Positions 6,900 to 57,997 of a DNA stretch of 64,000 bases are shown here, one piece after another. The first letter of the stretch is position 1, and each line of letters begins with the position of its first letter. This DNA is from a virus, in IMG/VR virus record IMGVR_UViG_3300012979_000037, positions 1 through 64,000 of that record. One strand, written 5' to 3'. The notes below the pieces were generated by a model. That model did no database searches and was not told the origin of the DNA. It saw only the letters and a program-made list of their open reading frames with translations. A program made the translations under genes and the position numbers.

Positions 6900-6921
6900 G
6901 GAAGAACATAAAATATAAACT

Positions 6922-7161: not shown

Positions 7162-7168
7162 AACGTAT

Positions 7169-10921: not shown

Positions 10922-11191
10922 ATGAAAAAAATAATCTATTTAATTACAATTTTTCTTTTATCTATTAGTTGTACAACAAATCACACCACTACTCACACTA
11001 ATATGCAGGTCGATCATATTGACTATTTAACCATAGATGGTTTTTGTACTGTAAGTATTTATAATATTGAATATAATGGACATGAGTATTTGTTATTAGA
11101 CGGGTATGAATCAATAGGTATAGAGCATAATCCAGATTGCAAAAAATGTAAATCTCAGTCTAGCTATACACCAACAGAATACTTATATTAA
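10922..11191 (+). CDS. putative lipoprotein
   Basis: Signal peptide plus lipobox-like LSISC (MKKIIYLITIFLLSISCTT). Confidence 0.45.
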   Translation: MKKIIYLITIFLLSISCTTNHTTTHTNMQVDHIDYLTIDGFCTVSIYNIEYNGHEYLLLDGYESIGIEHNPDCKKCKSQSSYTPTEYLY

Positions 11192-11254: not shown

Positions 11255-11479
11255 ATGAATAAATATCTTATCATCACAATTCTCTTTTTAGGCTTGATGG
11301 GGTTTGGTTGGATGTATTTTCTAACTAATCAAGTAACAAACTACGATGCAGCTATTGAAAACTGTATTTACAAGATGGATTCTCTTGAGACTCGTACTCA
11401 AATTCTTGAAGCACTGGTTGAAAAACAAAGTGAACAAGATAACAAACATGAAGTAACAATTTATCTAAAAACTAAATGA
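11255..11479 (+). CDS. hypothetical membrane protein
   Basis: N-terminal TM helix. Confidence 0.45.
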   Translation: MNKYLIITILFLGLMGFGWMYFLTNQVTNYDAAIENCIYKMDSLETRTQILEALVEKQSEQDNKHEVTIYLKTK

Positions 11480-11661
11480 TTATGACAGTAAAAGACGCTA
11501 AAGAAAAATTGCAAAATCTTGTTAATTCATTAAATGTATATAATGATGATGCAGATTTTGATATAAATATATATGACAACCGGGGTCATTATTATATCAC
11601 CGATATTGACGACTGGGTGTTAGATAACAGACCTGATAAAGTTGTTTTAACTATTGAATGA
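11476..11661 (+). CDS. hypothetical protein, tandem paralog 1
   Basis: Start MIMTVK(D/E)AKE; 61 aa; same length and motif (YDN.G.YY...DDW.LD) as the next gene. Confidence 0.45.
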   Translation: MIMTVKDAKEKLQNLVNSLNVYNDDADFDINIYDNRGHYYITDIDDWVLDNRPDKVVLTIE

Positions 11662-11843
11662 TTATGACAGTAAAAGAAGCAAAAGAATCATTATATAGTT
11701 TAATAGAAGCATTAAACGAATGTGATGAAAATTCAGAATTTGTATTGGATGTTTATGATAACTTTGGTTCATATTACAGAGGACATTTTGATGATTGGTT
11801 TCTTGATACCACTACAGAAATAATATCTTTAAATATTGAATAA
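11658..11843 (+). CDS. hypothetical protein, tandem paralog 2
   Basis: See 11476..11661; both share the junction ATTGAATGATTATGACAGTAAAAGA. Confidence 0.45.
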   Translation: MIMTVKEAKESLYSLIEALNECDENSEFVLDVYDNFGSYYRGHFDDWFLDTTTEIISLNIE

Positions 11844-11845: not shown

Positions 11846-12175
11846 ATGACAAGAAAAGATTTGGATAATGAGAGTATACGAACTTTATGTAAAATGAATA
11901 GAAGTGCTTTCTATGCTATCAGAGAAGAAGCCGAATTACGTTTGAAGAATTATTTTCATTCTTCTAAAATGACGGAGATAAAACTTGATAATCCAGTATA
12001 TTGTTCATTTTGGAATAGGGCTTTTGATATTAAAGTTGATAGGGTTTTTATAGAAAACAATAATGTATTTGTTGGAGGTAAAACTTCTAATGGAGGTGAT
12101 ACTACCGAATTTTTCAATTACATATTCAGCGATACTAGTTTGGATCAATTATTTGAACAAATACATATTTATTAG
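11846..12175 (+). CDS. hypothetical protein
   Basis: 109 aa; begins with the same ATTGAATAATTATGACA junction as the two upstream paralogs. Confidence 0.45.
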   Translation: MTRKDLDNESIRTLCKMNRSAFYAIREEAELRLKNYFHSSKMTEIKLDNPVYCSFWNRAFDIKVDRVFIENNNVFVGGKTSNGGDTTEFFNYIFSDTSLDQLFEQIHIY

Positions 12176-12227: not shown

Positions 12228-12497
12228 ATGAAGAAAATTTATCTATTCTTAAGTCTTTTGACTATTCTAAGTTTTTCAAGCTGCACAGAACAAGAACGTG
12301 CTCGTAATTTTGGAGGTAAAATTGAAATTAACGTTCCAGCAGGCTACAAGGTAACGTCAGCAACTTGGAAAGAAGCTGAGTTGTTTTATTTCTTGGAGCC
12401 AATGGAGGAAGGTTATGTTCCAAAGGAGAAGAAATTTGTAGAAAGCTCCTGCTATGGATTTTGGGAAAGTGAAGTAACATTTAAAGAAAAACGATAA
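12228..12497 (+). CDS. putative lipoprotein
   Basis: Signal peptide with LSFSSC lipobox-like motif. Confidence 0.45.
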   Translation: MKKIYLFLSLLTILSFSSCTEQERARNFGGKIEINVPAGYKVTSATWKEAELFYFLEPMEEGYVPKEKKFVESSCYGFWESEVTFKEKR

Positions 12498-22498: not shown

Positions 22499-22608
22499 TT
22501 TAAACATTATATATTTTAATTCTAACAAGAGATCTCTTATAAAATGTATATTTATATTATTTTGAAGGTTGAACTTGTTAAATCGAAGATTTTCATTCAA
22601 TCGAAGAT

Positions 22609-23121
22609 TTATAAAAAATACATAAAATCATCTATTTTCTTCATATTATATTTTTTAGTAAACTCTCTTATCCATTTTAGATATTTAGCTTTGGTTTTAA
22701 ACATAATCTCAATAAACCCATTGTCCTTACCAAACCATTCTTGAAATAATATGAGGTTAGAATCTTTATTGAATTCTTCATATTTTTTTTGCGTGTTAAT
22801 AAATGTTGAACTATTCTCTTTCATATAGTTTTTGCCAACTGTAATTAAGCATTCAGCATACCCGTCTATTTCAACTCCCAGAGAATATCTAAACGCTGCT
22901 AAATATAAATGATCATTCATAGGAATATTATCCATTACCTTATATTGATCAAATATTTTTTGTATTTCAAGAATAGAACCTGTATATGCAATTTTACCAT
23001 TATTTATATAGTCATATTTAATCATTAAGAATGGATTTTGGGTGTCTTTAATAGATCTACCAATCAATTCCTCTTCATCATCTAAAAGAGATTCTATTAT
23101 ATAGTCATTTAGTGTTTTCAT
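22609..23121 (-). CDS. ILDDE-leader family protein (long leader MKTLNDYIIESLLDDEEELIGRSIKDTQNPF)
   Basis: Conserved N-terminal ~30 aa shared with at least 18 other ORFs in the window; unrelated C-terminal domain. Confidence 0.6.
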   Translation of the reverse strand: MKTLNDYIIESLLDDEEELIGRSIKDTQNPFLMIKYDYINNGKIAYTGSILEIQKIFDQYKVMDNIPMNDHLYLAAFRYSLGVEIDGYAECLITVGKNYMKENSSTFINTQKKYEEFNKDSNLILFQEWFGKDNGFIEIMFKTKAKYLKWIREFTKKYNMKKIDDFMYFL

Positions 23122-23633
23122 AATATAACATTATCTTGTATTACAAAAAACCCCCACTCTGAAGTTTTAAATGTTGAATATTCAATTTTAAATATTTTCT
23201 TTATATCGTTTTTAATCTTGCTAAAATTTTTAATGTAATTTTTATGTAAATTTTTACTTATATTTTTAATAATATCTGGCTTTTTTAAACACAAATGTAA
23301 TTCATTAAATTCGGACATATGTGTTATATTCATTATATTATTACCATCTTTATCCATTAACTTAACTGTACGAGTTAAAGGATTCTTTATATAATCCTGA
23401 CTCTTAACTCCACCAACTTCCCAATAAAGACCGTCATCGAATTTAAAAAATTCTCTTACTAAATTAAGAAATTTTTTATCTTTATCTAATTGATCTTGTA
23501 AATCATATTTATCATTTATTTTTTTTATTGTATAATTATTAATAAAATAAGTAACTGGATTATTAATATCCTTATAAATATTTCTTACTAAAACATCTTC
23601 ATCGTCTAATATTGATTCATATAGTGTTTTCAT
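23118..23633 (-). CDS. ILDDE-leader family protein (MKTLYESILDDEDVLVRNIYKDINNP)
   Basis: Family leader; ATGA overlap with the downstream member. Confidence 0.6.
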   Translation of the reverse strand: MKTLYESILDDEDVLVRNIYKDINNPVTYFINNYTIKKINDKYDLQDQLDKDKKFLNLVREFFKFDDGLYWEVGGVKSQDYIKNPLTRTVKLMDKDGNNIMNITHMSEFNELHLCLKKPDIIKNISKNLHKNYIKNFSKIKNDIKKIFKIEYSTFKTSEWGFFVIQDNVIL

Positions 23634-23643
23634 ATATTTTATA

Positions 23644-25272
23644 TTATTTTACATCATATCCGTGTCCTGAGTTAATAGGACGAGCTAGATCATTTATTAC
23701 ACAATTTTCATGAGTTGTTGTATATTTAATCATTTCCTTCAAACACTCCTCATTTTCCAATGCTTTATTATATAATTTAATATTTGAAAGGAATAAAGGA
23801 TAAGCGTGAGCTTGACAATTCATTTTACCTTCTACTATATAATCATTATTATAAGATGTTAATAATTGACATATTGGATTTTCAACATCAAAATAATACA
23901 TCTCAGGTCTTAACTTATATACTGGAATATTCATATCGTGAGTATATTTATATATAATTAACTCACTACTAAAGGTACTTCTATTCCACTTACATATTAC
24001 CATATAAGTTGTAAATGAATCCAATTCTTGAGTCATATTATTAAACTCTAATGTAAACTTCTCTCTACTACTATCATAATTAACATTAATTGAAATGGTA
24101 CCGAATTGTAAAACCTCTTTGCTAATATTACCTCCTAATGTTCCTTGTGTTTCCAATAAGAACATTAAAGTACCATTTTCACCACAATATCCTTTTTGAT
24201 AAGTAACACAAGCATTTTTATTTTTAAACTTATAGAGATTTCTCGCTATAACATTACTCTTGTGATTATATTGTTTATTTACAATAGCAATATCATTTTT
24301 TGTATATTGTTTTCTTACATTATCTTCCATAAAAATATCAAATAAATTTGTTGCAGCAAATGTTGGAGCACTTAATGGTGAAGCACCTACTTCTCTTTCT
24401 TGCTCATTTCTTTCTAATTTTCCAAAGGTATCTTCATAATTATTTACAATCCAAGTGTCTATAATACTATCAAAATTACCTTTATCAATATTGGTTTTAT
24501 CATTATATTTTACTAGTGCTAATTTCCAAGTAACTGGAGTCCACATAAATCCTTCATTTTTCTCATCATATGCACTATTTACCTCATACATTCTCTTTAA
24601 GAGTGGTACATAAATTAAATCCCTTTGTTTTGGAAAAATGGTATCACCAAAAGCCTGAGCAAATTGTTGTTTACCAACTTCTACTTCCCAATCATTTTCC
24701 CAATCAAAATCAAACTCTGTAAATTTCGGATTGGAGCTTGGTAATTGTCCATCTTGTAACATTAATTTAATTTGCTTAATATCTACCACGTCGTGAAGTG
24801 AAAATTCCTTAAAGGTATAATCAACACTTTCTTGTTTTGGTTGTACTCTTAAATAATATATTGGAATACCAAACATACATATTATGGAATTAGATGTTTG
24901 TTGATATAACTCCAAAGCACAATCTAAATTGGAATATGGATTGAATAATTGTTCTTCTCCACAAAAATTGTGTAAAAAGGTATCACTTGAGTCAATGCAA
25001 ATATCATAGCAGGTTGTAAACATACCGTGAAGTGAAATCTTATTAAAGATTCCAGGTATGCGAACTCTCAAGTAAAAATCACTTTCAATATTTTTACATA
25101 TTCTATTATATTCATCATAATTAACCCAACAAGTCCAACAAACTCTATCTCCAGACCAACTAAATTCACATAATTGTGTAATGTCTTGATTTAAATTGTT
25201 ATAGACTACTACTGGTCCATACACAACAGCTTCACTAAAGGTTAATATATGTTTTAATAAGGTACAACTCAT
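23644..25272 (-). CDS. large hypothetical protein (542 aa) embedded in the leader-family array
   Basis: Long ORF with no family leader and no recognisable motif. Confidence 0.55.
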   Translation of the reverse strand: MSCTLLKHILTFSEAVVYGPVVVYNNLNQDITQLCEFSWSGDRVCWTCWVNYDEYNRICKNIESDFYLRVRIPGIFNKISLHGMFTTCYDICIDSSDTFLHNFCGEEQLFNPYSNLDCALELYQQTSNSIICMFGIPIYYLRVQPKQESVDYTFKEFSLHDVVDIKQIKLMLQDGQLPSSNPKFTEFDFDWENDWEVEVGKQQFAQAFGDTIFPKQRDLIYVPLLKRMYEVNSAYDEKNEGFMWTPVTWKLALVKYNDKTNIDKGNFDSIIDTWIVNNYEDTFGKLERNEQEREVGASPLSAPTFAATNLFDIFMEDNVRKQYTKNDIAIVNKQYNHKSNVIARNLYKFKNKNACVTYQKGYCGENGTLMFLLETQGTLGGNISKEVLQFGTISINVNYDSSREKFTLEFNNMTQELDSFTTYMVICKWNRSTFSSELIIYKYTHDMNIPVYKLRPEMYYFDVENPICQLLTSYNNDYIVEGKMNCQAHAYPLFLSNIKLYNKALENEECLKEMIKYTTTHENCVINDLARPINSGHGYDVK

Positions 25273-25280
25273 AATACTAT

Positions 25281-25787
25281 TTATATTTGCAATTTATTTT
25301 CTTGTATTTTGCCAGAACCTGTTTTTGAATATTCAGCACCCATATCTAGTAAGTATTGTTTAAACTTTAACAACTCCGTGGGTTTTACATTCTTTCTAGC
25401 AGTTTTAGATAGTTGATTAATGTCTGCAATTTCTATATGTACATATTCTTTATCACCCCATAACATAAATGATAATGCTGGTTTTGGAGGATACTTAGTT
25501 CTTTCCTTTGTATCTTTTAATATACAGTATACACTTTTACCAGAAGCCCCCGAGTATTTACCACAAAGCCATTTCATTCTACCATCAAATTTATAGAATA
25601 ATTTAGATACCTCTTTTTCTACCATATCTTGATTGATTATTCTCTCCAATTCCTCCTCACTAGCATCATTTAACATAGCTCTCTTTAAAGTGAGTAACCA
25701 GTTTTTAGATATTTCTTTTGCTTTATCAATCAATACATCCTCATCATCTAAAAGAGATTCTTTTATATAGTCATTTAGAGTTTTCAT
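25281..25787 (-). CDS. ILDDE-leader family protein (MKTLNDYIKESLLDDEDVLIDKAK)
   Basis: Family leader. Confidence 0.6.
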   Translation of the reverse strand: MKTLNDYIKESLLDDEDVLIDKAKEISKNWLLTLKRAMLNDASEEELERIINQDMVEKEVSKLFYKFDGRMKWLCGKYSGASGKSVYCILKDTKERTKYPPKPALSFMLWGDKEYVHIEIADINQLSKTARKNVKPTELLKFKQYLLDMGAEYSKTGSGKIQENKLQI

Positions 25788-25793
25788 ATCAAT

Positions 25794-26021
25794 CTAGTCT
25801 GCTTTCGTATAAACTTTATTATCTTCAATTTTAACAATCTTAAACACTGTGCCTCCAGCGTACCATCCTTTACCTACTTGAGGTTTCTTTTTCCACTCCT
25901 TAGCCCATTCTGTAAAGTGATTATCCAATTTATCATCAACGTAAACCAACCAAGGTTCTCCATTATCGGCTTTAACAGCTTCTAATATATATTCACTTAA
26001 ATTTTTCATATTTATGTCCAA
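25794..26021 (-). CDS. hypothetical protein (no leader)
   Basis: 75-aa ORF within the array; overlaps the next gene start by 10 nt. Confidence 0.4.
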   Translation of the reverse strand: MDINMKNLSEYILEAVKADNGEPWLVYVDDKLDNHFTEWAKEWKKKPQVGKGWYAGGTVFKIVKIEDNKVYTKAD

Positions 26022-26827
26022 TTTTTAAATCTATACCACTTACCGTCACTATGTTTAATTAATTGCGAGTTTTGTGTATATTGTATATTTTTAAGATTTT
26101 TAATATCATTATTCTTACCAAAGTATGTATTTATAACTTCGAGACCTTCCTCAGTAACTGGATTTTCAAATTTGTTTTTATATTTATTCATTGGAGCCTT
26201 TCTAGCAATAGCTTTTGAGAAGGAATCTCCAAAGTTAAAATCATTTACAAAATCAATACGCTCAACACCCTTTAATTCAAACATTTTGGAAAAATCATTA
26301 TAATCTCTATCAGCATGTATTCCTAACGATCTTATATGAAGCTCTTTTATAATTCTACCCTTAAAGTCTAACTTCATCTTTTCTATACCTTTAGTGGCTG
26401 AATATATATTTACCCAACATCCATTACAAGTCATTTTTAGTTCTGGGAAGTAATCTAAATTTACTTTAATATTTAAATAACGCACTTGCTCAGGTAATCC
26501 TCTAAATGATTTAATACTAATTTTTTTATTAGAATACATTCCTTGAAGTTTAGGTTCTCCAATTGTCACATCAAGATTTTCTTGGCTAGCAAACTTAATA
26601 TATTTTGGTAATTCATCATAATCTTCGTATGTTAAATACAGACGATATGCCAAATTAATCGGTTCAATTTCTTTTTTTGAATTTATCTTAAAATTACCAT
26701 TATATATTTTGTGCTCTTTACACCATTCTTCTATAATATTGATCTCTGAGTCTTCTATGGAACGACCGATCAACTCTTCTTCATCATCTAATAGTGATTC
26801 TCTTATATATTCATTTAATGCTTTCAT
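26012..26827 (-). CDS. ILDDE-leader family protein (MKALNEYIRESLLDDEEELIGRSIED)
   Basis: Family leader; 271 aa. Confidence 0.6.
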   Translation of the reverse strand: MKALNEYIRESLLDDEEELIGRSIEDSEINIIEEWCKEHKIYNGNFKINSKKEIEPINLAYRLYLTYEDYDELPKYIKFASQENLDVTIGEPKLQGMYSNKKISIKSFRGLPEQVRYLNIKVNLDYFPELKMTCNGCWVNIYSATKGIEKMKLDFKGRIIKELHIRSLGIHADRDYNDFSKMFELKGVERIDFVNDFNFGDSFSKAIARKAPMNKYKNKFENPVTEEGLEVINTYFGKNNDIKNLKNIQYTQNSQLIKHSDGKWYRFKNWT

Positions 26828-26923
26828 ATCTATATAATAATAAAAAAGAGAAGATATCTAAAAGACATCTCCTCATAAAATTCATCTAAATATTATTTAT
26901 AGTTTCTTTTCGTATTCAACTAT

Positions 26924-27415
26924 TTATTCAATCACCCAAAATTCATTAAATCCTTCTTTATACTTTGGGTGTTTTTTAAATTTATATTTTTTTACAAATT
27001 TATTAATTTCTTTCTTTCTTTCTTTATCATCCCAATTTGGTATGTTTTTATCATATGTATTTACTGTTAAAAAAACTCTATATTTTGATTCATCCCAATA
27101 TTTTGATTTTTTTGGAAATGAAAAACTAAAGAGTTCTTTTTTAGGAGTCCACCTCATTCCTTCTTCCGGACAATCTCTAAATATGTAGATAAGCTCAGGA
27201 TGATTGTATGATAATGATGTATATATAGTACTATCTTTTGGAATATCAATTTGTTTTAAAATAGACCTAAATTCTTTATCCCATTCAAGATTACCTGGTT
27301 CACAATTTTTCTCTTTACATATATTATAGAGTTTAATAATAGGATTAGAATCATCAATAGATTTATCTATTAAAACCTCTTCATCGTCTAATATTGATTC
27401 ATATAGTGTTTTCAT
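26924..27415 (-). CDS. ILDDE-leader family protein (MKTLYESILDDEEVLIDKSIDD)
   Basis: Track ORF extends to 27439; the leader Met at 27415 fits the family start. Confidence 0.55.
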   Translation of the reverse strand: MKTLYESILDDEEVLIDKSIDDSNPIIKLYNICKEKNCEPGNLEWDKEFRSILKQIDIPKDSTIYTSLSYNHPELIYIFRDCPEEGMRWTPKKELFSFSFPKKSKYWDESKYRVFLTVNTYDKNIPNWDDKERKKEINKFVKKYKFKKHPKYKEGFNEFWVIE

Positions 27416-27416
27416 A

Positions 27417-27905
27417 TTATATTTTTTTATTATACACATTGTACGATCCCATTTTGTCTAGCGACCAAGTTGATTTCTTAAACCCTCTTTTTCTAATATG
27501 AGATAGTGTCTTTTTATATTTATCGTATTCAAAAATGTTTGACACTTGCCCATACTTGCTTAATTTTTTAATTTCAATATCGAATGTTTTTGATTTTATT
27601 CTATAGCGAATAATAAATAGATGAATTTCAAAATCTTTATTGCATAATGAAGCACTTGCAATAGAATCTGTATATGTATTTACTATCCAATAATGATCTT
27701 TTGGATCTAAATATAATTCATTTTTAATAAACTCATCAAAAACTCCACCACTAATAAATTTTTGAAAATCATCCCTGCTCATTCCTGAATCTATAGCAGC
27801 AATCACCGCCGTGAAAGGATCATTAAAAGCATCTTTTGCTCTACCTATCAATTCATCTTCATCGTCTAATATAGATTCTCTTATATAATCATTTAGTGTT
27901 TTCAT
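27417..27905 (-). CDS. ILDDE-leader family protein (MKTLNDYIRESILDDEDELIGRAKDAFNDPF)
   Basis: Family leader. Confidence 0.6.
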   Translation of the reverse strand: MKTLNDYIRESILDDEDELIGRAKDAFNDPFTAVIAAIDSGMSRDDFQKFISGGVFDEFIKNELYLDPKDHYWIVNTYTDSIASASLCNKDFEIHLFIIRYRIKSKTFDIEIKKLSKYGQVSNIFEYDKYKKTLSHIRKRGFKKSTWSLDKMGSYNVYNKKI

Positions 27906-28375
27906 AAGTAATATACTAATGGGTCTTTTTTTGATTTATTTAAATTATATTTTTTAGCTATTGTATGTATCCAATCATTATAATATCTTTCATCTTTAAA
28001 TCCATAATAAAGGTAATCTTCCATAAAAGGTTCACTAAAAAATATAACCATTTTTTGATCTCCTGGAAGTCCATAAACATCGTCATTTTTAGACCATAAA
28101 TCCCCATGTCTCAATATTATTAGTGGATCAAAATCACTGTGTTGAATTCGCAACTTAATACCATTAGATTGTGTAATTATTTCAATAGGGCGTTTTGATT
28201 TAATTGTTTTAATAAATTTATCAAATAATTTTTCAATTTCCTGCTTATGGTCTATTAAATTAGCTTCATTACTCATTAAATTAGCTAAAGTAATAAATGG
28301 ATTTTTAGAATCCTTAATAGCATTACCTATTAAAGTATCCTCATCATCTAATATAGATTCATATAAACTTTTCAT
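27902..28375 (-). CDS. ILDDE-leader family protein (MKSLYESILDDEDTLIGNAIKDSKNPF)
   Basis: Family leader; first gene of the minus-strand array. Confidence 0.6.
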   Translation of the reverse strand: MKSLYESILDDEDTLIGNAIKDSKNPFITLANLMSNEANLIDHKQEIEKLFDKFIKTIKSKRPIEIITQSNGIKLRIQHSDFDPLIILRHGDLWSKNDDVYGLPGDQKMVIFFSEPFMEDYLYYGFKDERYYNDWIHTIAKKYNLNKSKKDPLVYYL

Positions 28376-28389: not shown

Positions 28390-28420
28390 AAAAGAAAAGA
28401 GGTTCAATTAAGAACCTCTT
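28390..28420 (-). terminator. rho-independent terminator for the upstream minus-strand unit
   Basis: Hairpin aagaggttc-aattaa-gaacctctt with a flanking T/A run; overlaps the stop of 28420..28737. Confidence 0.45.
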
Positions 28421-28737
28421 TAAAATTTTGGCATATTCATACTTGGCATTTTAGGTATTGAAGGATTCATCATTTTATTCATATTTGAGGGATTTGCCAT
28501 CTTTTTATATGAATTAATATCATACTTATCCATTTCATCCTTTTGTTTCTTATTTTCCTCTTTAACAACCTCATTGAGTGTCTTCATAAACATCTCATAT
28601 TCCCACATTGGCATTTTATCAATCTCGGAAGGTTGTATGTGAAAGTTCTTAGCCAAGTGAACCTTATTTGTAACTAAATTCTCTATATTGATCATCCATA
28701 AACTAATTATAGCCTTTTCAATATATGAATTGTCCAT
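28420..28737 (-). CDS. hypothetical protein (track 28420..28836; Met after the upstream stop chosen)
   Basis: Internal start MDNSYIEK lies directly after the stop of 28742..29809; Met/Asn/Pro-rich C-terminus. Confidence 0.4.
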   Translation of the reverse strand: MDNSYIEKAIISLWMINIENLVTNKVHLAKNFHIQPSEIDKMPMWEYEMFMKTLNEVVKEENKKQKDEMDKYDINSYKKMANPSNMNKMMNPSIPKMPSMNMPKF

Positions 28738-29923: not shown

Positions 29924-30523
29924 ATGAGTGAATTTAATCCTATTAAACAAGATAAAGATGGAGTAGTAGCGAAAAGAGTTGTGTGGACTACTAAATCTAT
30001 TGAAGCCGCAATTAAAGGACTTGTAGAGGGTCGAAAGTTAGTGGCTAATCCATTTTATGAATATAATACAAAACTATTAAAAGGAGAGTTGGTATTTAAA
30101 AGAACTCAGGAGGAAATTGATGAGTTTAGAAAATGTATGAACAATGTTGTTTACTTTGCTGAAACTCATTGTCAATTGATGACTCCGGAAGGTATTCAAC
30201 ATATTAAACTTCGTGATTACCAAATTAAATATTTGAAGCATTTGGAAAATAATAGGTTGAGTATTTATAGGGCTTGTAGGCAGTGCGCGAAGTGTGTGAT
30301 TCCTATTGAGTTAGTAAGAATTAAAGTAAAAGACGAGTTATTTGTCGGCAAGTTAAAAAAAGAGGATTGGAATAATTATTATATAAATGATAATATTTAT
30401 GAATTACCTCTATTTGAAGTTATGAATTTATATAAAACTGGATGGAGATGGTTTGTAAAATACCAACTATATAAATTAATCTACAAAATTAACCAGTATA
30501 ATGAAAGACGGAAGAAAAAATAG
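29924..30523 (+). CDS. terL: terminase large subunit N-terminal fragment (N-extein through the Walker A Lys) plus intein N-fragment
   Basis: NVVYFAETHCQLMTPEGIQHIKLRDYQIKYLKHLENNRLSIYRACRQCAK aligns with T4 gp17 [51 protein letters not shown]. It then continues from a Cys into about 76 aa of non-terminase sequence (CVIPIELVRIKVKDE...). Confidence 0.65.
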   Translation: MSEFNPIKQDKDGVVAKRVVWTTKSIEAAIKGLVEGRKLVANPFYEYNTKLLKGELVFKRTQEEIDEFRKCMNNVVYFAETHCQLMTPEGIQHIKLRDYQIKYLKHLENNRLSIYRACRQCAKCVIPIELVRIKVKDELFVGKLKKEDWNNYYINDNIYELPLFEVMNLYKTGWRWFVKYQLYKLIYKINQYNERRKKK

Positions 30524-31619
30524 AAAAATACCTAAAGAAAATCAATGGAAAAATCTTGAATTTTATATTAAAAGAAATCCTGATAAAACGTTAGAAGAAT
30601 GTAAATTAATTTGGCAACAAACTCTATTAAAATCAAAACAATCAAAACGAACTAATATTGAATATTGGAAGACTAAATATCCAAACTACACTGAAGAGCA
30701 AATAAATAAAGTTTTTACTCAATATAAAAGAGAAAATTGTTTTCAATGTATAGAATATTGGATTAAAAGAAATCCTGATAAAACGTTAGAAGAATGTCAA
30801 GAATTGCTTACCCAAGCAAAACAATCGTATATAAAAAAAAGACCAAATAATCGAGGTAAAAATAATCCGGGTCATAAATCAAAAACTACACTTCAACAAA
30901 GAAGAGAACGTTCAGCAAGCTGTATTGAATTCTGGAGAAAAAAATATCCAAACTCTACTGAAGATGAATTGAAAAAATATTTAGAAAATCATTTAATTAA
31001 GCTTAAACAATCTCATACTCCAGAAAATACAATAACTCGAATCGAATATTGGCTATCTAGAGGTTATGATGAAGAAAACGCTTATTTAAAAATGAAAGAA
31101 GAGCACTATAAAAGATCATTTACTTTAGAAAAATGCATTAAAAAATATGGAGAAGAAAAAGGAATAGAAGTTTTTAATAAAAGACAGGAAAAATGGAAAA
31201 AATCCTTATATAAAAATTTTGAAAAATATGGAGATGGAAGAAGTTCTCAAAGTGAATTCGCTCATACTATCATATGTCAAATTTGCGATTATTTAAACCT
31301 AAATGTAAATGATTTTACTAAAGAAAAATGGCTTACCGATAAAAGTACAAATAGACATTATTCTTACGATTTTACTTATAATAAAAAAATCATAGAATTT
31401 AATGGAGATTATTGGCACGCGAATCCAGATTTATATGACGAAACCTTTTTTAATGTACGTAAAAATATGACCGCTGAAGAAATTTGGTTGTATGATAAAC
31501 AAAAAATACAATGCGCTAATAAAAACGGATATAAAACCCATATTGTGTGGGAAAATAATTGGAATAACAATAAAGAATTTGAATTACAAAAATGTATTGA
31601 TTTTTTAACAAATGATTAA
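30501..31619 (+). CDS. free-standing homing-endonuclease-like protein with 5 N-terminal helical repeats and a C-terminal Vsr/DUF559-type PD-(D/E)xK nuclease domain
   Basis: Repeats IEYW(K/I/R/L)..(Y/N)P(N/D)...E(E/D) occur five times. C-terminus FNGDYWHANPDLY...EEIWLYDKQKIQCANKNGYKTHIVWENNW. Lies between the two terminase fragments in a third reading frame. Confidence 0.55.
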   Translation: MKDGRKNRKIPKENQWKNLEFYIKRNPDKTLEECKLIWQQTLLKSKQSKRTNIEYWKTKYPNYTEEQINKVFTQYKRENCFQCIEYWIKRNPDKTLEECQELLTQAKQSYIKKRPNNRGKNNPGHKSKTTLQQRRERSASCIEFWRKKYPNSTEDELKKYLENHLIKLKQSHTPENTITRIEYWLSRGYDEENAYLKMKEEHYKRSFTLEKCIKKYGEEKGIEVFNKRQEKWKKSLYKNFEKYGDGRSSQSEFAHTIICQICDYLNLNVNDFTKEKWLTDKSTNRHYSYDFTYNKKIIEFNGDYWHANPDLYDETFFNVRKNMTAEEIWLYDKQKIQCANKNGYKTHIVWENNWNNNKEFELQKCIDFLTND

Positions 31620-33465
31620 TTTTTTATTAAATATTATCTATAAAATTGTTGAGTTTTTAGATAAACAAAATGAGCAAGAAGATAAAATAGTATGGTCTCA
31701 TATACTCAATGGAGTAGAAGTCTATTCAAAATCAGGTTGGGTACCTGCGACATATATTCATGAAACTAAACCATTTATAGTATATAAGATAACTACTAAA
31801 AATGGTCTTCATTTAGATTGCGCTGATGATCATTTAGTTTTTGATGAAAATATGAATACTATTTTAGTAAAAGATTTAAAAATAGGAAGTAATATTCAAA
31901 CAGAATTTGGTTTAGATAAAATAGTAAATATTGAAAAGGTAGATATAAAAATATCAATGTGCGACTTATCAGTATTAGAAGAAGATGAAAGTTATTATAC
32001 AAATCATATATTATCCCATAATACTACTACTTCAGCTATATTCCTCTTACATTACGCTCTTTTTAATACCGATAAAAACACATTAGTTTTGGGGAATAAA
32101 CGCAAAACAGCTGTCGAGATATTAGATAAAATTAAGAAGATTTATTTAGAGATTCCTTACTATCTCAAACCGGGTATTTTAAAATGGAATGAAAGTGAAA
32201 TCGTCTTCGATAATGGATGTAGAGTAATGGCTGAAGCTACTACAATCAACTCAGGTATTTCATTTACCTTTCACTGCGTACTAGCAGACGAGTTCGCTCA
32301 CGTACCACCAAACATTCTTGATAAGTTCTATAATAACCTATTCCCTACTATTACCGCAGGTAGAGCTCGTTTTATCATTACATCAACCCCACTGGATTAT
32401 AATTTGTTTTATAGATTATATAAAGCAGCGGAAGCCGGAGAAAACGACTATGCTCCATTTAGTACAGATTGGTGGGAAGTACCTGAGTGGAATCCCGATA
32501 AACGTTGTTGGGAGAAGAGAGATGAAGAATGGCATCAACGTCAAATAGCCAACTATGGTAGTGAGGAAGCTTTTAATAAGCAATTTGGTGCTTCATTTGA
32601 TGTTAATGCAAATACCTTAGTGAAAGTTAAAAAGATTAAAGAAATGAGAGAAAGAGCTGTGGAGTTTATAAATAAAGATATATATGGAGTCTCTCATAGT
32701 GAGTTCTTCTCTTGGGATCCCACTTATGATCCTATGGAAGATCTAAAAAAAGACCACATAATTATTACTTGTGACTTAGCTGAGGGTGGTGGAAATGATT
32801 ATACTGTATTCATTTTTAATAAGTTACAAAAAGATGATACTATGAAAACCATTGGAATGTTTAGATGTAATAGTTTAGGTTTGGATGTAACATCAAAAAT
32901 ATTACAGGAGATATGTTGTAAATGGTGTAATTTTGATAGATTATTAGTAAGTATTGAATTAAATATGTATGGCGAGTTATTCAGTAAAATGTTATTTACA
33001 AATAGGGATACATATAATGATTTAGCTAATTTTGATGAAACTTGTTTAGTTAAGTATTATAATAAAGAAGGTAATAAGTTTACATATGGTATTAAATTGA
33101 ACTCTGGTAACAAATCAATGGGTTGTAAGTTGTTTAAAGAGAAAGTAGAAAAGGATATAGTATCAAACTTATCAACAACATTCTTAATGGAGTTGGAAAA
33201 CTTTAGTGATAATAAGGGTAATGATACATACCAAGCAACATTTGGACACGATGATGTTGTAATGGCTCAAATGCAAATTGTATTTGTTTTACAAACACCT
33301 CAATATAAATTTTTATTAGAAGATTTACAATCTGGATTATCTTCCACCCAAAAAGATTTTTATAATCCTTACCAAGATTTTTATGATCAAAATTCTTATT
33401 ATAATAATGATATATTTAATGAAGTATATAGTGAAAGTCATATAAGAAGATTAAATAGATTTTAA
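31612..33465 (+). CDS. terL: intein C-fragment (Hint blocks B, F, G ending ILSHN) fused to the terminase large subunit C-extein (ATPase remainder plus nuclease)
   Basis: Residues 1-137 contain GLHLDCADDHLVF (block B TxxH-like) and MCDLSVLEEDESYYTNHILSHN (blocks F/G, terminal HN). From T138, TTTSAIFLLHYALFNTDKN...CVLADEFAHV...GHDDVVMA aligns with T4 gp17 (GK)TTVVAIFLAHFVCFNKDK...IYIDECAF...YHDDLVMS. Confidence 0.7.
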   Translation: MINFLLNIIYKIVEFLDKQNEQEDKIVWSHILNGVEVYSKSGWVPATYIHETKPFIVYKITTKNGLHLDCADDHLVFDENMNTILVKDLKIGSNIQTEFGLDKIVNIEKVDIKISMCDLSVLEEDESYYTNHILSHNTTTSAIFLLHYALFNTDKNTLVLGNKRKTAVEILDKIKKIYLEIPYYLKPGILKWNESEIVFDNGCRVMAEATTINSGISFTFHCVLADEFAHVPPNILDKFYNNLFPTITAGRARFIITSTPLDYNLFYRLYKAAEAGENDYAPFSTDWWEVPEWNPDKRCWEKRDEEWHQRQIANYGSEEAFNKQFGASFDVNANTLVKVKKIKEMRERAVEFINKDIYGVSHSEFFSWDPTYDPMEDLKKDHIIITCDLAEGGGNDYTVFIFNKLQKDDTMKTIGMFRCNSLGLDVTSKILQEICCKWCNFDRLLVSIELNMYGELFSKMLFTNRDTYNDLANFDETCLVKYYNKEGNKFTYGIKLNSGNKSMGCKLFKEKVEKDIVSNLSTTFLMELENFSDNKGNDTYQATFGHDDVVMAQMQIVFVLQTPQYKFLLEDLQSGLSSTQKDFYNPYQDFYDQNSYYNNDIFNEVYSESHIRRLNRF

Positions 33466-35052: not shown

Positions 35053-35118
35053 ATTATCATTTAATAAAAGATCTCTTGTTAGATCAAAGAAAAACTATAT
35101 TTAAACAAAAGTTATAAT

Positions 35119-37692: not shown

Positions 37693-37722
37693 AAGAGAAG
37701 CCCTCGAGCTTCTCTTTTTTAT
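37693..37722. terminator. bidirectional rho-independent terminator between convergent genes
   Basis: Sequence aaaaagagaagccctcgagcttctcttttttat with A-run and T-run flanks. Confidence 0.6.
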
Positions 37723-38189
37723 TATAAATAAAGTGTAAATGTTTCTACTTTATCACCAGGAAATGATTCTGCAGTAAAATCAAATTTTTTTCGTAAAATG
37801 TTTGATATTATTTTATATTCTTTAAATTTGTAATAATCATTACTATAAAAATAAATTCTTATATATTTATCTTCGAACGATATGTAAAAAAACACAGGAT
37901 ATTTAAGTACATAACTAGGTCTTGCTATAACTTGTAATCTATTACTTTTAAACATACCAAAATCTCTCCCATAGTCAGGTTTTAACTTATCAAGTTTTAA
38001 ATCCTTAAATATAGAATTCATTAAGTAATATAATTCATCATCAGGAATATTTTGTAATTTTTTGTTATAATTTAACCAAGTAGAGAGAATAGTAATAAAT
38101 GGATTTTTAAAGTCATCATTAAGTCTACCTATCAACTCTTCTTCATCATCTAAAATAGATTCTCTTATATAATCATTTAGTGTTTTCAT
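37722..38189 (-). CDS. ILDDE-leader family protein (MKTLNDYIRESILDDEEELIGRLNDDFKNPF)
   Basis: Family leader; ATGA overlap with the upstream NMNAT-like gene. Confidence 0.6.
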   Translation of the reverse strand: MKTLNDYIRESILDDEEELIGRLNDDFKNPFITILSTWLNYNKKLQNIPDDELYYLMNSIFKDLKLDKLKPDYGRDFGMFKSNRLQVIARPSYVLKYPVFFYISFEDKYIRIYFYSNDYYKFKEYKIISNILRKKFDFTAESFPGDKVETFTLYL

Positions 38190-38731
38190 ATTGTCTCCAT
38201 TATATTTTTTAATTTTTCATACATACCCCAAAGTACTTGAGGAACTAACTCTTTAAATCTATCTTCGTGACCTGCTTTGAGAGCTTCTCTAACTGCTGTT
38301 GCTGATACATCATCATCATTTCTCTTAATCTCCACTAATTCGGTGTCTGGAGCATATTTAGCGACCATTCTACTATAAGATTGCACTCTATCTGTACCAC
38401 AAGTCCAAGTAGCTGCTGTTAATCCTAGGGCTCCTAATTCTTCACCTATCTTAACAATATCAGCGTTCTTAACTAATATTATATCTTCAATCTCCTCATA
38501 ATTCTTAACCAACTTTTTATAATATGGTAAAATAATTTTGGTGAGAAATGGATGTCTATCATCAACTTTTGTAGTCTCAACCATACAAATCACAGTTTTA
38601 AGACCACGATTTTTATAAACATTTTGAATACACTTTAAGTGTCCATTTGTAAAAGGTTGAAATCTACCTACTAATATATTTACTTTAGTTCTCTTAAGAG
38701 ACTCATTTATAAATTGTGTAATTGTTTTCAT
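38186..38731 (-). CDS. NMN adenylyltransferase-like nucleotidyltransferase (NadM-type HxGH family)
   Basis: N-terminal VNILVGRFQPFTNGH matches the NadM/NadR-type motif GRFQPFH.GH of cytidylyl/adenylyltransferases. Confidence 0.55.
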   Translation of the reverse strand: MKTITQFINESLKRTKVNILVGRFQPFTNGHLKCIQNVYKNRGLKTVICMVETTKVDDRHPFLTKIILPYYKKLVKNYEEIEDIILVKNADIVKIGEELGALGLTAATWTCGTDRVQSYSRMVAKYAPDTELVEIKRNDDDVSATAVREALKAGHEDRFKELVPQVLWGMYEKLKNIMETI

Positions 38732-38736
38732 ATATT

Positions 38737-39345
38737 TTAACTTAATTCTACAAATTCAAAATCAATATTATTAAACTTAAATGTAACTTCAAATGTATTA
38801 GATTCTCTATCTACTTTTGAATACGTGAAATCTAATCCTTCAATACCATCAATAAAAACATCCATTAATTTAATACGTGAGGTGATTTTTCCAGTCTCAT
38901 CTAAAATATCAATTAAAAATACCTCTTCTTGTTTATTATTCAATGGTTTTAAATACTTATAAAATATCGTCTCATACATCATAAAATAATTATAGAGACC
39001 TTGATTTAATCTAAAAGTAACCTTAAACTCTTTATTAATTCTTGATAAAGGGTTAGAAGACTCCAAATAAGTAATTTCATGAATTGGCTCAACATTGATT
39101 TTCCCTAATCCCTTACTTGTTCTTTTTATACTATTACTCTCACGTTGTTGTTGAGAGAGTACCAAATCATTCATACCAGGTATATTTATAGATTGAATAC
39201 TCTCGTTTAAATAGTCAATAGGTTTTTGAATAACTCCAGCGTTACTATTTAATATATTATAATATTTACCCTCAATTTCCTTTGGAAGAAAATCTAAAGG
39301 TAAAATAAATTTAAATAAATCAAATCTAGGGCTTAATGATAGCAT
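38737..39345 (-). CDS. hypothetical protein
   Basis: 202-aa ORF. Confidence 0.5.
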   Translation of the reverse strand: MLSLSPRFDLFKFILPLDFLPKEIEGKYYNILNSNAGVIQKPIDYLNESIQSINIPGMNDLVLSQQQRESNSIKRTSKGLGKINVEPIHEITYLESSNPLSRINKEFKVTFRLNQGLYNYFMMYETIFYKYLKPLNNKQEEVFLIDILDETGKITSRIKLMDVFIDGIEGLDFTYSKVDRESNTFEVTFKFNNIDFEFVELS

Positions 39346-39357
39346 ATCTTATATATC

Positions 39358-39804
39358 TTATTTTTCTAAATAATACCAACCTTGAAATTTATCAGCTGGT
39401 ACATCAATATGTTCAAAATCATATTTTTTAATAAAACTCTTTATAAATTTAAGAGCATTAGGGCCAAATTTTTCTTTTGAATTAGATATAGTATTATCAA
39501 CTAGTAAACAGCAAGCATTTTTTGGTAATATAGGTGTTTGACAACTAAATGAAATTTCAAATAAAGTAGTTGAAGTACTCTCTATAATTATTCTTATAAA
39601 GTTCTTTCCAACAAAATACCTCACTCCATTTGGTAGAGGAAATTTAGACATAATTCCCTCAGCATATCTTTCCCAAGCTCTATAACTATTTTTCAACTCA
39701 TCATATTTAATCTTTAATACTCGAAATGGATTTTGAGTATCCTTGATTGAGTTTCCAATCAAAGTATCTTCGTCATCTAATATGGATTCGTATAATGTTT
39801 TCAT
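39358..39804 (-). CDS. ILDDE-leader family protein (MKTLYESILDDEDTLIGNSIKDTQNPF)
   Basis: Family leader. Confidence 0.6.
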   Translation of the reverse strand: MKTLYESILDDEDTLIGNSIKDTQNPFRVLKIKYDELKNSYRAWERYAEGIMSKFPLPNGVRYFVGKNFIRIIIESTSTTLFEISFSCQTPILPKNACCLLVDNTISNSKEKFGPNALKFIKSFIKKYDFEHIDVPADKFQGWYYLEK

Positions 39805-39816
39805 TATATTAGTATT

Positions 39817-40257
39817 TTATTGTAAATAGTAAATATTTTTTGAAGCGTGTTTCAAATTATACTTTTTAGCCCAAGATTTCATATAATATTTCATTTTCTT
39901 TTGACCCCATTCTCCATATTCTGAAAATTCTATAAATAATTTACAATCATATGAAATTCCATTATATGAAAATTCATCATCTAATGTAATATAACATAAT
40001 GATATATTATGATCATCATGTATACAAAACAATTTTTTATCTATTATATTAATCTCGAACGCAGTCAATTCAGAATTAAGAGGTAACTCAAGTGGTTTTA
40101 AAATATTTGAAATATCTTTTTGTTTTCCAAAAGGGATTTTTTTACCATTTGATATATAATAATTATATAATACTATAAAAGGATTTTGTGAGTCCTTAAT
40201 AGAGTTGCCTATTAAAACATCTTCGTCATCTAATATGGATTCATATAATGTTTTCAT
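39817..40257 (-). CDS. ILDDE-leader family protein (MKTLYESILDDEDVLIGNSIKDSQNPF)
   Basis: Family leader. Confidence 0.6.
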   Translation of the reverse strand: MKTLYESILDDEDVLIGNSIKDSQNPFIVLYNYYISNGKKIPFGKQKDISNILKPLELPLNSELTAFEINIIDKKLFCIHDDHNISLCYITLDDEFSYNGISYDCKLFIEFSEYGEWGQKKMKYYMKSWAKKYNLKHASKNIYYLQ

Positions 40258-40709
40258 AATTTAAATACTCGCACAATTTTATTATTGTTGCCTTTTGTTG
40301 TTTTAGCACCAAACTGTTTATTAATTTTATTTTCAATAGATTCATATTCATTTTGAGTTAAATCATAAACTTTCAGTTTATCCTTATCTGAATAATCATC
40401 TCTATCATAATCATTCATAAATTCTATTTTAGCTTCGTTTGCATTGATCTTATTAATAAACAAAAATGGCAATGTTCCCTCAAACCAATAATATAAATCA
40501 TCTCCGCTTGATTCCCAATGACAATATTTTTGATCTCCAGCTATATAAATTTCATTATCATTCAACCATTTGCAGCATTCTGTAAATTTATCTCTCTTAA
40601 TGAATTTTTTAATAGTATCACACCATTGAGCTAATTCAACAGCCTGTCCGATCAATACATCTTCATCATCTAATATAGATTCTCTTATATAATCATTTAA
40701 TGTTTTCAT
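40254..40709 (-). CDS. ILDDE-leader family protein (MKTLNDYIRESILDDEDVLIGQAVE)
   Basis: Family leader. Confidence 0.6.
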   Translation of the reverse strand: MKTLNDYIRESILDDEDVLIGQAVELAQWCDTIKKFIKRDKFTECCKWLNDNEIYIAGDQKYCHWESSGDDLYYWFEGTLPFLFINKINANEAKIEFMNDYDRDDYSDKDKLKVYDLTQNEYESIENKINKQFGAKTTKGNNNKIVRVFKL

Positions 40710-40710
40710 A

Positions 40711-44662: not shown

Positions 44663-44663
44663 T

Positions 44664-45470: not shown

Positions 45471-45473
45471 GTT

Positions 45474-45686: not shown

Positions 45687-45694
45687 AATCTGCG

Positions 45695-46000: not shown

Positions 46001-46002
46001 TT

Positions 46003-46371: not shown

Positions 46372-46511
46372 TTTATATATAGCAATATCTCCATTGGATG
46401 TTGAGTATATGGTAGATAACGAATTAAAAAGTCCATCAAGAAATACAATATCAAAGTTACTGAATTGACCAGTGGCGTAGAAGATGGAATTAAACAAATA
46501 TATCGAACACA

Positions 46512-53386: not shown

Positions 53387-53719
53387 ATGAAAACAATATT
53401 ACAATATATTAGTGAAAGTCTAAATCAAATAAAATCTATTAAAGATTTAGAAAAATTTATATCGAGGTTTCCAGATAATGCTACATCTTGGAGATATGCT
53501 AATGATGAAATTCGAGATATTTGTAAAACATTGAGAGAATACCTTAAAGAGTATGATAATATAGATGTAGAACCATTGGATTACAAATCATTCAAGACTC
53601 CTTCAGAATGGAATATTAATTCTAAAGATTTTATTAGAGTTAACATAAAAAAATTATCTAAAAATACATTAGAAAGATTTTTAAAGGATCTTGATGAAAC
53701 ATTCTGCCATAATGAATAA
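53387..53719 (+). CDS. hypothetical protein
   Basis: 110-aa ORF. Confidence 0.5.
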   Translation: MKTILQYISESLNQIKSIKDLEKFISRFPDNATSWRYANDEIRDICKTLREYLKEYDNIDVEPLDYKSFKTPSEWNINSKDFIRVNIKKLSKNTLERFLKDLDETFCHNE

Positions 53720-57055: not shown

Positions 57056-57997
57056 TTAAAATAACATTGTTTTAGTATATATAACAAATTCTTTTGATTT
57101 AGTTTTCTCTATAAAACCTTCTTTTTTGAGTTTCTTTTTAATATCTTTATAGTTTTGAACATAATTTGTATAGTTCGAAATTGTCTCTCTAAATATTCTG
57201 GAGAAATTGTATAGTGAATTTTTTAAATCCATTCTTGGGACATATATTAATAATGCATTATGCATATATGCTAATGGAGAATATACAATTCTAACAATGT
57301 AGTTGCTATTACAATCTAATAAAATTTCAAAAGATGGCATTTTGCAGTCAAAATCTGTATTATCGTATAATCTTACTCTCCATCTAACACGTTCTCTAAT
57401 CTTGTCAATGTCAACACTTAAAAAATCTCTTAAAAAATCATCTAATTCTCCATTGTTAAGTCTTTTGTAAATTACATTTTCATCACCACCATTTCCAAGA
57501 TCTTGAAGAACTCTTACTACAAATGAATTAAAAAAGTCATTTGACATTTTAGCAGCTTTTGAGATTAATTCATCCTCATCATCTAATATAGATTCTTGTA
57601 AGTTTGTTGAGAAGTAAATTTTTGATTCTCTTGTTACATTTTCTTGGGAGTCACTAGAATGCATAACATTCTTCATATCGCTCCTTCCATACTTTTCTCT
57701 AATTTGATCCTTAAGTTTGGATAGATCTTTGTTCTTTCTATTGTTTAAAATATAACCTATGGAATCTCCAGAAGACATATATTTACAAAGATCCTCATAA
57801 AAATCTTCACTTTCGTGCATTTTATAGAGATTCATTGCTTCGTCTAATGAAAGCGTTTTCTTTAATTTCTTATTAATAGAAAAACCATAACCCAATAAAA
57901 TATCTTCAATTTCTTGCTGATATCTTAAAAACTCAGGTTTGATAATAACAAACTCTAGTTTATCCATTACTTCCAATATATCATATAAAGTCTTCAT
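57056..57997 (-). CDS. nucleoside diphosphate kinase domain fused in-frame to an ILDDE-leader family module
   Basis: N-terminal 140 aa: VIIKPEF...GF...LCKYMSSGDSIGYIL...NVMHSSDSQENVTRESKIYF parallels NDK (LIKPDAV, KGF, VKYMNSGPVVAMVW, NIIHGSDSVESAEKEIALWF). Then STNLQESILDDEDELISKAAK opens a family-type C-terminal part. Confidence 0.5.
   Translation of the reverse strand: MKTLYDILEVMDKLEFVIIKPEFLRYQQEIEDILLGYGFSINKKLKKTLSLDEAMNLYKMHESEDFYEDLCKYMSSGDSIGYILNNRKNKDLSKLKDQIREKYGRSDMKNVMHSSDSQENVTRESKIYFSTNLQESILDDEDELISKAAKMSNDFFNSFVVRVLQDLGNGGDENVIYKRLNNGELDDFLRDFLSVDIDKIRERVRWRVRLYDNTDFDCKMPSFEILLDCNSNYIVRIVYSPLAYMHNALLIYVPRMDLKNSLYNFSRIFRETISNYTNYVQNYKDIKKKLKKEGFIEKTKSKEFVIYTKTMLF

Follow-up and report, generated by a model that had tools for sequence, protein, structure and literature searches.

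The first 64,000 nucleotides of the IMG/VR virus record IMGVR_UViG_3300012979_000037, hereafter called the window, contain two minus-strand arrays of small genes (array 1, 22609-28375, and array 2, 37722-41205) whose products share an N-terminal tag of ~30 residues ahead of fast-evolving bodies. We propose, tentatively and with somewhat less than even confidence, that this is a T4-style capsid-targeting, protease-trimmed tag carried by a diversifying set of head-packaged proteins, and thus an expanded and modified T4 internal-protein system. In the literature and databases that we searched we met no description of the tag, its bipartite structure, the fold of the main body, the copy of the capsid N-arm in one subfamily or the scale of the family; a shared N-terminal tag on hypervariable small proteins is already known in T4-type phages (PMC3012670).

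A conserved tag with a protease-type junction

Array 1 is made of nine tightly packed minus-strand open reading frames (ORFs), and inspection of these ORFs placed the leader at the start of seven of them, as an earlier note on this DNA had stated. The ATGA junctions described there were seen at 23118/23121 and 27902/27905, and the leaderless 542-residue protein that it had singled out is a neck-protein homologue (23644-25272) located 8-10 nt from family genes on either side. By tblastn this protein matched the proteins annotated as neck proteins in Tenacibaculum phages PTm1 and PTm5 (6e-18), the neck protein of Chryseobacterium phage MA9V-2 and gp88 of Sphingomonas phage PAU, and it also matched PHROG 679 at 2e-7. 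Array 1 has the same orientation as gp26, gp51 and the neck protein gene, with which it is closely packed, and is flanked by Gp10_C/fibre genes on one side and by baseplate hub genes on the other.

A six-frame scan of the window found [IL]LDDE in 18 ORFs, near the N-terminus in 17 and internally in one, where at least 19 members had been counted earlier. Array 1 accounts for seven and array 2 for five; the remaining ones are 34172, 34606, 42634, 58078, 62361 and 57056-57997 (Table 1). The tag consensus is S-[IL]LDDE[DE]xL[IV]...NPF, and three leader forms can be told apart: mid, MK[TS]LYESILDDE[DE]xL[IV]; long, MK[TA]LN[DE]YI[IRK]ES[IL]LDDE; and short, M(S)ILDDE. Across 269 leaders the residues S-[IL]-L-D-D-E are 93-100% invariant and are followed by L and [IV] at +7 and +8. 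Sequence upstream of the tag is present in 222 of these leaders, and there P3 is Leu or Ile in 216, P1 is Glu in 210 and P1' is Ser in 221, with P2 varying among Y, R, K, C, L, I, Q and S. This [LI]xE/S junction (the slash marks the putative cut) is kept across different architectures, as LYE/S, YIRE/S, NLQE/S in a fusion to an NDK domain, and KIKE/S or VSE/S in an extended form. The most conserved segment, SILDDE[DE]xL[IV], falls downstream of the putative cut and stands alone in the short forms. It is an acidic amphipathic helix that reaches to the NPF turn, and its strict conservation implies one common partner.

Next, we compared codon choice at identical residues between the window paralogues. 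The codon was the same in 702 of the 1129 comparisons, where codon usage alone would give 602, and the leader of 58078 encodes the same residues with quite different codons (e.g. CTG GAC GAC GAA GAC), while a few pairs share their synonymous choices, such as 23118/26924 at 7/7 codons. Since synonymous sites lie near expectation, these comparisons indicate that the tag is conserved as protein rather than as DNA and that selection acts on the peptide. The near-identity of ~45 nt reported earlier therefore mostly reflects a peptide under selection in an AT-rich genome with biased codon usage. Leader form is also uncoupled from body class, with short, mid and long leaders mixed within most classes, and 90%-identity clusters of 22609 orthologues hold both 170-residue (long leader) and 166-residue (mid leader) versions. 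These patterns indicate that leader exchange occurs between members.

Resemblance to T4 propeptides and to a capsid protein

To place the tag beside known processing signals we read the T4 N-termini from NC_000866: the internal proteins IPII and IPIII begin with MKTYQEFIAE/A, IPI has ...ITE/A, gp24 has MAKINELLRE/S and gp23 has ...LTE/A. In T4, gp21 cuts after L/I-x-E and a 10-residue capsid-targeting sequence (CTS) suffices for head incorporation, positions 4 and 7 being important for targeting and 8 and 10 for processing (PMC9026906). Cleavage takes 10 residues (MAKINELLRE) off the start of gp24, 65 off that of gp23 and MKTYQEFIAE off the internal proteins (PMC9958956). The long leader MKTLNDYIRE/S parallels the gp24 and IPIII propeptides position by position, including residues 4 (L), 7 (Y), 8 and 10; the mid form MKTLYESILD has S at position 7 and the short forms have no such peptide. 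The likeness to the CTS that the earlier note had proposed thus gains support at the level of sequence from the T4-like nature of the phage, the L/I-x-E pattern at P3 and P1 and the long leader, but the note had located the conserved signal wrongly: the SILDDE segment lies past the cut and is all that the short forms keep, so the tag is not simply a CTS.

A gene for a Gp23-family capsid protein lies two genes downstream of family members in the relative L011 and, by analogy, implies a gp21-type prohead protease in the lineage. This capsid protein has LNE5 and ITE16 in its N-terminal region, and the last Glu ahead of the fold is that of MYE40/S, where the maturation site would be located. In an extended-leader subfamily, MKNLKEYIEE is followed by a cut-type site and CDGVALATPANTMGMGNPGM...KIKE/SLLDDE, which gives a pro-piece of ~55 residues, and residues 11-30 of this leader copy residues 49-68 of the capsid protein, ATPxNTxGMGNP. 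The local alignment scored 61, against 23.7 +/- 3.8 (maximum 43) in 2000 shuffles, and the copied N-arm segment lies between two protease-type sites.

Two further observations concern head genes. The gene immediately upstream of the L011 major capsid gene encodes a 552-residue ATP-grasp protein of the RimK/glutathione-synthetase type (L011 7673-9331), an unusual capsid neighbour. We also considered a stretch of the T4 prohead-core protein gp68 (L013 3024-3449), ENMLDDETDLAVAL, which resembles the tag ESILDDEDVLIGNS; the leader hidden Markov model (HMM) was not significant there, and we regard the resemblance as anecdotal and maybe due to chance.

In the mechanism that we propose, an address module would comprise an optional pro-piece (MKTLYE, MKTLNDYIRE or the ~55-residue capsid N-arm version) ending in [LI]-x-E, followed by the helix up to the NPF turn, and it would dock the protein into the assembling prohead core, like the CTS of T4. 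The gp21-type prohead protease would then cut after the Glu of [LI]-x-E, and the cargo would stay in the head and enter the host with the DNA. The body is an exchangeable, fast-evolving part, usually a novel alpha/beta domain and sometimes an unrelated one such as DUF285/PARCEL repeats. We infer packaging, cleavage and ejection, and an anti-defence role of the cargo would be pure conjecture. In a bolder version, the head would be loaded with a combinatorial set of effectors for injection (dozens in each genome, at least 200 divergent types in the population), addressed by a bipartite tag (removable pro-piece plus retained docking helix) that in some members mimics the capsid N-arm. This would be a virus-borne combination of delivery tag and effectors on the scale of bacterial secretion-system effectors, and it appears doubtful to us.

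Several observations weigh against packaging in the head. The likeness to T4 propeptides spans just 10 residues, to which no E-value can be assigned; the leader HMM finds no significant match among the ORFs of two T4 regions (NC_000866); and SILDDE[DE]xL[IV], being past the cut, has no counterpart in the T4 CTS. P1 is Lys in eight leaders, and 47 of the 269 are short forms without any pro-piece. In the L011 capsid protein, MAFFT aligns the T4 LTE/A site elsewhere, ambiguously. Array 2 sits among replication and nucleotide-metabolism genes, and no late-promoter signal was demonstrated in the window: sites found by a sigma-70 promoter scan and by a TATAAATA census were no commoner than chance, and some of them abut start codons and therefore cannot be promoters of those genes. 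DUF285/PARCEL bodies are typical of surface proteins. The family was not found in cultured phages (50,697 phage records). Finally, at least 18 cargo species in 64 kb is, to our knowledge, far above any known internal-protein set.

Body classes and predicted fold

Once stripped of their leaders, the bodies within the window show almost no BLASTP similarity to one another. Together with metagenomic relatives, 229 bodies formed 28 single-linkage groups, and with hhalign the two largest groups and a third joined at 86-94% probability over ~90 columns, which unites 135 of the 229 bodies (~60%) in a superfamily with a shared C-terminal KKYN[FL]K motif. Another pair of groups joined at 88% in profile-profile comparison. 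The complete divergence after the leader that had been described earlier consequently holds for BLASTP in the window, but not for the superfamily of 135. The remaining bodies make up at least five classes without detectable relation, including a 271-residue type, a 226-residue type and several others; for the body of the 271-residue member (26012..26827), profile-profile comparison detected no relation to other classes. Most bodies are basic (pI, isoelectric point, 8-9.4) behind the acidic tag.

According to structure prediction, the main body is a novel alpha/beta domain of ~120 residues. The AlphaFold2 model of 39817-40257, built from a 132-sequence alignment, reached a predicted local distance difference test (pLDDT) value of 83.4 and a predicted template modelling (pTM) score of 0.75, and displays three helices, a six-stranded sheet, the KKYN helix and a terminal hairpin; the model of 22609-23121 has the same topology at lower confidence. 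In the 39817-40257 model the first two 10-residue blocks (residues 1-20) have a mean pLDDT of 59 and 68 and the later blocks 76-94, so the extreme N-terminus would act as an appended helix and the NPF region would be part of the fold. Searches of BFVD and the PDB for folds like the body models gave no match, and no homology of the bodies to IPI, IPII or IPIII was found with PHROG, Pfam, BFVD, PDB fold or tblastn searches, the last against the phage records.

The tag was found on at least six unrelated body classes, on DUF285 repeats and downstream of NDK. The DUF285/PARCEL-repeat body belongs to a tagged L011 member (6239-7162; PF03382, E 1.3e-54, 183 bits; TIGR02167, 63 bits against a cut-off of 30), and this classification covers only that member's body. 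In L010, NDK is a stand-alone gene directly upstream of family genes, and the fusion in the window is therefore derived. By eye, 42634-43314 resembled FISUMP (Fibrobacter succinogenes major paralogous domain), a candidate that we set aside, as no Pfam or NCBIfam hit was obtained at E<=0.01.

Rapid turnover of the family

Orthologues of family members in L001 are 62-85% identical, with a ratio of non-synonymous to synonymous substitution rates (dN/dS) of 0.20-0.57, compared with 85-98% identity and a dN/dS of 0.03-0.18 for neighbours (gp26, gp51, gp2, transferase, sigma and others), a rate ~5 times that of the neighbours. The content of the arrays differs among the window, L001 and L014, with members inserted, deleted or duplicated, and in L014 a frameshift breaks the 22609 orthologue in two; the fixed genes of the array region in the comparison with L014 are those of the neck protein (98.9%) and gp51 (100%). 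Members are thus gained, lost, swapped and pseudogenised between relatives, and are individually dispensable. Turnover, leader swapping and raised dN/dS give rise to a diversifying repertoire that is plausibly under host-defence pressure.

How large and how novel the family is

A word-indexed profile search retrieved 61 metagenomic proteins, none of them named and none with a Pfam domain, and an exhaustive HMMER search of 1.84 billion representatives yielded 197 clusters (50% identity), of which 70 had E<=1e-10, so that the tag recurs far beyond chance. Nearly all of the proteins in these clusters are 140-175 residues long and were matched across their full length; among the 150 clusters listed, the leader is mid in 118, long in 13 and short in nine. 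A Pfam scan of 132 members yielded only NDK in the window fusion and a few sporadic hits, probably chimeras.

The earlier note knew of no described family to which these proteins correspond, and our searches agree: PHROGs and NCBIfam gave no family for the members, neither one member nor the leader consensus had a tblastn match in the 50,697 phage records, and a full-text literature search found no published description of the motif. IMG/VR scans by peptide pattern and by back-translated leader were likewise without matches, a JGI metagenome scan gave two short contigs only, a leader-only profile search gave short fragments only, and a search with the 59-residue extended N-terminus gave no candidates.

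The host phage and other features of the window

The window has a GC content of ~28% and contains T4-type genes for the gp26 baseplate hub, gp51, the large terminase (TerL) and the gp2 DNA end protector, as well as genes for a DNA polymerase exonuclease subunit, a gp55-like sigma factor and Gp10_C, and QueE and tgt-like deazaguanine genes. Exact-protein look-ups identified the syntenic relatives L001 (237.7 kb), L010 (152 kb) and L014 (140.7 kb). In the 50,697 phage records, a near-identity search with 22609-28375 found no DNA-level relative, and TerL is at most ~31% identical to anything there. From the T4-type genes and the syntenic relatives it follows that the host phage is an uncultured jumbo myophage of the T4-like kind, with a genome of ~240 kb and only a distant relationship to PTm1, pT24 and MA9V, Bacteroidota phages of ~220 kb.

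Terminator-like hairpins precede three members (starts 28375, 26827 and 34172), and most members abut the preceding gene. In the PeSL-like shuffling cassettes of T4-type phages, a conserved promoter and a stem-loop stand immediately upstream of each ORF; here hairpins are present at three members, and a conserved promoter was not demonstrated. A 1037-residue DUF285 protein and fibre-like genes flank the region. Decapeptide-like starts without the tag were seen in the nucleotidyltransferase of array 2 and in two other ORFs (25794..26021 and 53387..53719); in the former an 18-residue N-terminal extension, MKTITQFINESL, beginning MKTITQFINE, precedes the enzyme domain.

Table 1. Family members and associated features in arrays 1 and 2 and elsewhere in the window (aa, amino acids).
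Feature	Position	Strand	Remarks
Family member, 170 aa	22609..23121	-	Array 1; long leader, main body class
Family member, 171 aa	23118..23633	-	Array 1; mid leader; L014 member at this position only 34% identical
Neck-protein homologue, 542 aa	23644..25272	-	Array 1; leaderless; late structural gene; 98.9% identity in L014
Family member, 168 aa	25281..25787	-	Array 1; long leader
75-aa ORF	25794..26021	-	Array 1; decapeptide-like start MKNLSEYILE only, without ILDDE; 97% conserved in L014
Family member, 271 aa	26012..26827	-	Array 1; long leader, larger body class; 95.5% identity to L014 orthologue
Terminator-like hairpin	26848..26874	-	Within array 1, upstream of the 271-aa member
Family member, 163 aa	26924..27415	-	Array 1; mid leader, ATG at 27415 (mechanical ORF extends to 27439); 84.7% identity to L001 orthologue
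Family member, 162 aa	27417..27905	-	Array 1; long leader MKTLNDYIRE then SILDDE; body class that of the C-terminal half of the NDK fusion
Family member, 157 aa	27902..28375	-	First array 1 gene; mid leader MKSLYE followed by SILDDEDTLIGNAIKDSKNPF; L001 orthologue 70.7% identical, dN/dS 0.36
Terminator-like hairpin	28396..28421	-	Between gp51-like gene and first array 1 gene
Family member, 144 aa	34172..34606	+	Short leader MSILDDE; directly after terminator-like hairpin following gp2
Family member, 148 aa	34606..35052	+	Variant leader MNKLYK then SILDDE; P1 is Lys, not Glu
Family member, 155 aa	37722..38189	-	Array 2; long leader
Cytidylyl/adenylyltransferase	38186..38731	-	Within array 2; without ILDDE motif; enzyme domain from residue 19
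Family member, 148 aa	39358..39804	-	Array 2; mid leader; L001 orthologue has long leader
Family member, 146 aa	39817..40257	-	Array 2; mid leader; modelled with AlphaFold2
Family member, 151 aa	40254..40709	-	Array 2; long leader; acidic body, separate class
Family member, 164 aa	40711..41205	-	First array 2 gene; mid leader
Family member, 226 aa	42634..43314	+	Short leader MILDDE; distinct body (GLSVKWA...YFQWG)
110-aa ORF	53387..53719	+	Decapeptide-like start MKTILQYISESL, without LDDE motif; possibly a degenerate relative
Fusion protein	57056..57997	-	NDK domain (residues 15-132), NLQE then SILDDE at residue 137, family body
Family member, 139 aa	58078..58497	+	Short leader, acidic body; leader codons very unlike other copies
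Family member, 139 aa	62361..62780	+	Short leader

Two intergenic regions that flank family genes (~22520-22545 and ~35065-35085) contain the palindromic motif AAGAGATCTCTTGTTAGA and its complement. The region 62143-62360, which precedes the short-leader gene 62361, is GC-rich and apparently structured, and ends in a strong terminator-like hairpin (AGTGGAGA...TCTCCACTTTTTTTT); it has no Rfam match, and an Rfam scan of the entire window gave no matches either.

TerL is apparently interrupted in 29924-33465, which holds a 199-residue N-terminal fragment (29924-30523), a 372-residue ORF (30501-31619) and a 617-residue TerL (31612-33465). L001 and L014 have a single TerL of 803 residues, and L001 also has a 469-residue DUF7487 ORF upstream. 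This difference suggests a mobile insertion polymorphism of the intron, intein or homing-endonuclease type. A 7-deazaguanine set, made up of a PTPS-like protein, a QueE radical-SAM protein (E 3e-51) and a tgt/DpdA-like transglycosylase, lies at 44063-47790 (and L001 20035-20438), and these genes make a modification of the phage DNA at G probable. Next to them lies an HNH or homing-endonuclease-like ORF (48833-49981; PHROG 314, E 1e-25).

The plus-strand small-ORF region contains two tandem pairs of small paralogues, 3562-3783 / 3770-3934 (MKKYSCRVFKNL / MKNYSYQWFKDE) and 11476-11661 / 11658-11843 (MIMTVKDAKEKL / MIMTVKEAKESL), and small ORFs with lipoprotein-like signal peptides at 10922-11191 and 12228-12497 (MKKIIYLITIFLLSISC and MKKIYLFLSLLTILSFSSC). 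A 109-residue ORF (MT[RQ]KDL.NESIRTLCKMNRS.FYAIREEAELRLK) lies at 11846-12175 in the window and at 18964-19293 in L001; because its genomic positions differ, it looks like a mobile small gene.

Alternative explanations

The main rival to packaging is an intracellular family of effectors or adaptors that is never packaged, in which the helix docks one common partner, be it a host or phage protease, a polymerase, a clamp or a chaperone, and the bodies pick the targets. We regard this as unlikely, although several observations would suit it: the best-conserved part is the helix and not the pro-piece, the short forms are the helix alone, array 2 and the plus-strand copies are surrounded by genes of replication, nucleotide metabolism and transcription, and the members are individually dispensable, as is typical of accessory host-interaction genes. 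However, it leaves unexplained the near-invariant [LI]xE/S junction across differing upstream architectures, the copy of the capsid N-arm in one subfamily and the grouping of array 1 with genes for neck and baseplate, and it cannot name the partner.

Alternatively, much as conserved N-terminal anchors carry exchangeable receptor-binding proteins, the N-terminus may fix small and variable binding modules to an appendage of the head or tail on the virion surface, which would give the particle a variable coat of adhesins. Consistent with such modules, one member has DUF285/PARCEL repeats, the DUF285 protein and fibre-like genes lie on the flanks of the region, array 1 is located between Gp10_C/fibre genes and baseplate hub genes, and unusual fibres on the head or tail occur in distant relatives that have been cultured, among them PTm1 and PAU (PMC7824862). 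Nevertheless, most bodies are small monomer-like alpha/beta domains without a fibre or adhesin fold match, known anchors of receptor-binding proteins are larger folded domains, and the Glu-specific cut site and the copy of a post-maturation-site capsid segment point to the prohead interior. As an account of the family we consider the surface improbable, while a surface-anchor role is possible for some members.

Lastly, a DNA-level recombination handle, whose 5' segment would let 3' cassettes be swapped and whose peptide would have no function of its own, could account for leader forms that differ between orthologues >90% identical and between window and L001 orthologues, for their uncoupling from body class and for the few pairs with shared synonymous choices, but it is very improbable in view of synonymous sites that are near expectation overall, of copies such as 58078 with quite different codons, and of residues that are >93% invariant in 269 sequences whose bodies are saturated with changes. 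The handle that the earlier note had offered therefore falls as the reason for conservation, though the leader exchange that it supposed does occur.

Implications and comparison with known systems

Should the tag prove to be a head-targeting signal, no larger repertoire of phage-packaged proteins would be known, and the family would also provide a catalogue of candidate early-acting effectors against the defences of gut or rumen bacteria. The invariant tag of 16-30 residues offers a handle for finding cargo by mass spectrometry, where peptides would be expected to begin at SILDDE, and could serve to bring foreign proteins into these capsids, a use to which the T4 CTS has been put. Packaged or not, the family is undescribed, very large and rapidly diversifying, with a predicted novel fold.

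The closest parallel to the tagged family is that of the T4 internal proteins IPI, IPII and IPIII and the T-even hypervariable loci, which likewise comprise small, mostly basic, highly divergent proteins that share only an N-terminal tag. Their tags have an MKT start, hydrophobic or aromatic residues at 4 and 7 and an I-x-E end before a small residue (PMC9026906), they are portable to other proteins, and the rapid evolution of the internal proteins fits an arms race (PMC3012670). In contrast, the tag described here has ~30 residues instead of 10, some members have no pro-piece, and the family has 18 copies in 64 kb and ~200 divergent metagenomic clusters where T4 has three internal proteins. 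The propeptide of T4 gp24 is matched by the long leader at N5, acidic 6, hydrophobic 7-8, R9, E10 and S11 (PMC9958956), but gp24 is an HK97-fold capsid protein and the bodies here are unrelated small domains. The inner-body and ejection paralogues of phiKZ, 201phi2-1 and SPN3US also include multiple head-internal proteins whose propeptides are removed after Glu by a gp21-like protease (PMC9026906); they belong to another lineage, are cut at an S/A-x-E motif, lack a common 30-residue leader and resemble the present family neither in sequence nor in fold. Finally, the polymorphic LXG, MIX and Rhs effectors and toxins resemble the family by analogy only, in their arrays and in combining a conserved N-terminal delivery module with swappable, fast-evolving C-terminal domains; unlike them, the family has no toxin domains (132 members), immunity genes or secretion-system context, and its neighbours are phage structural and replication genes.

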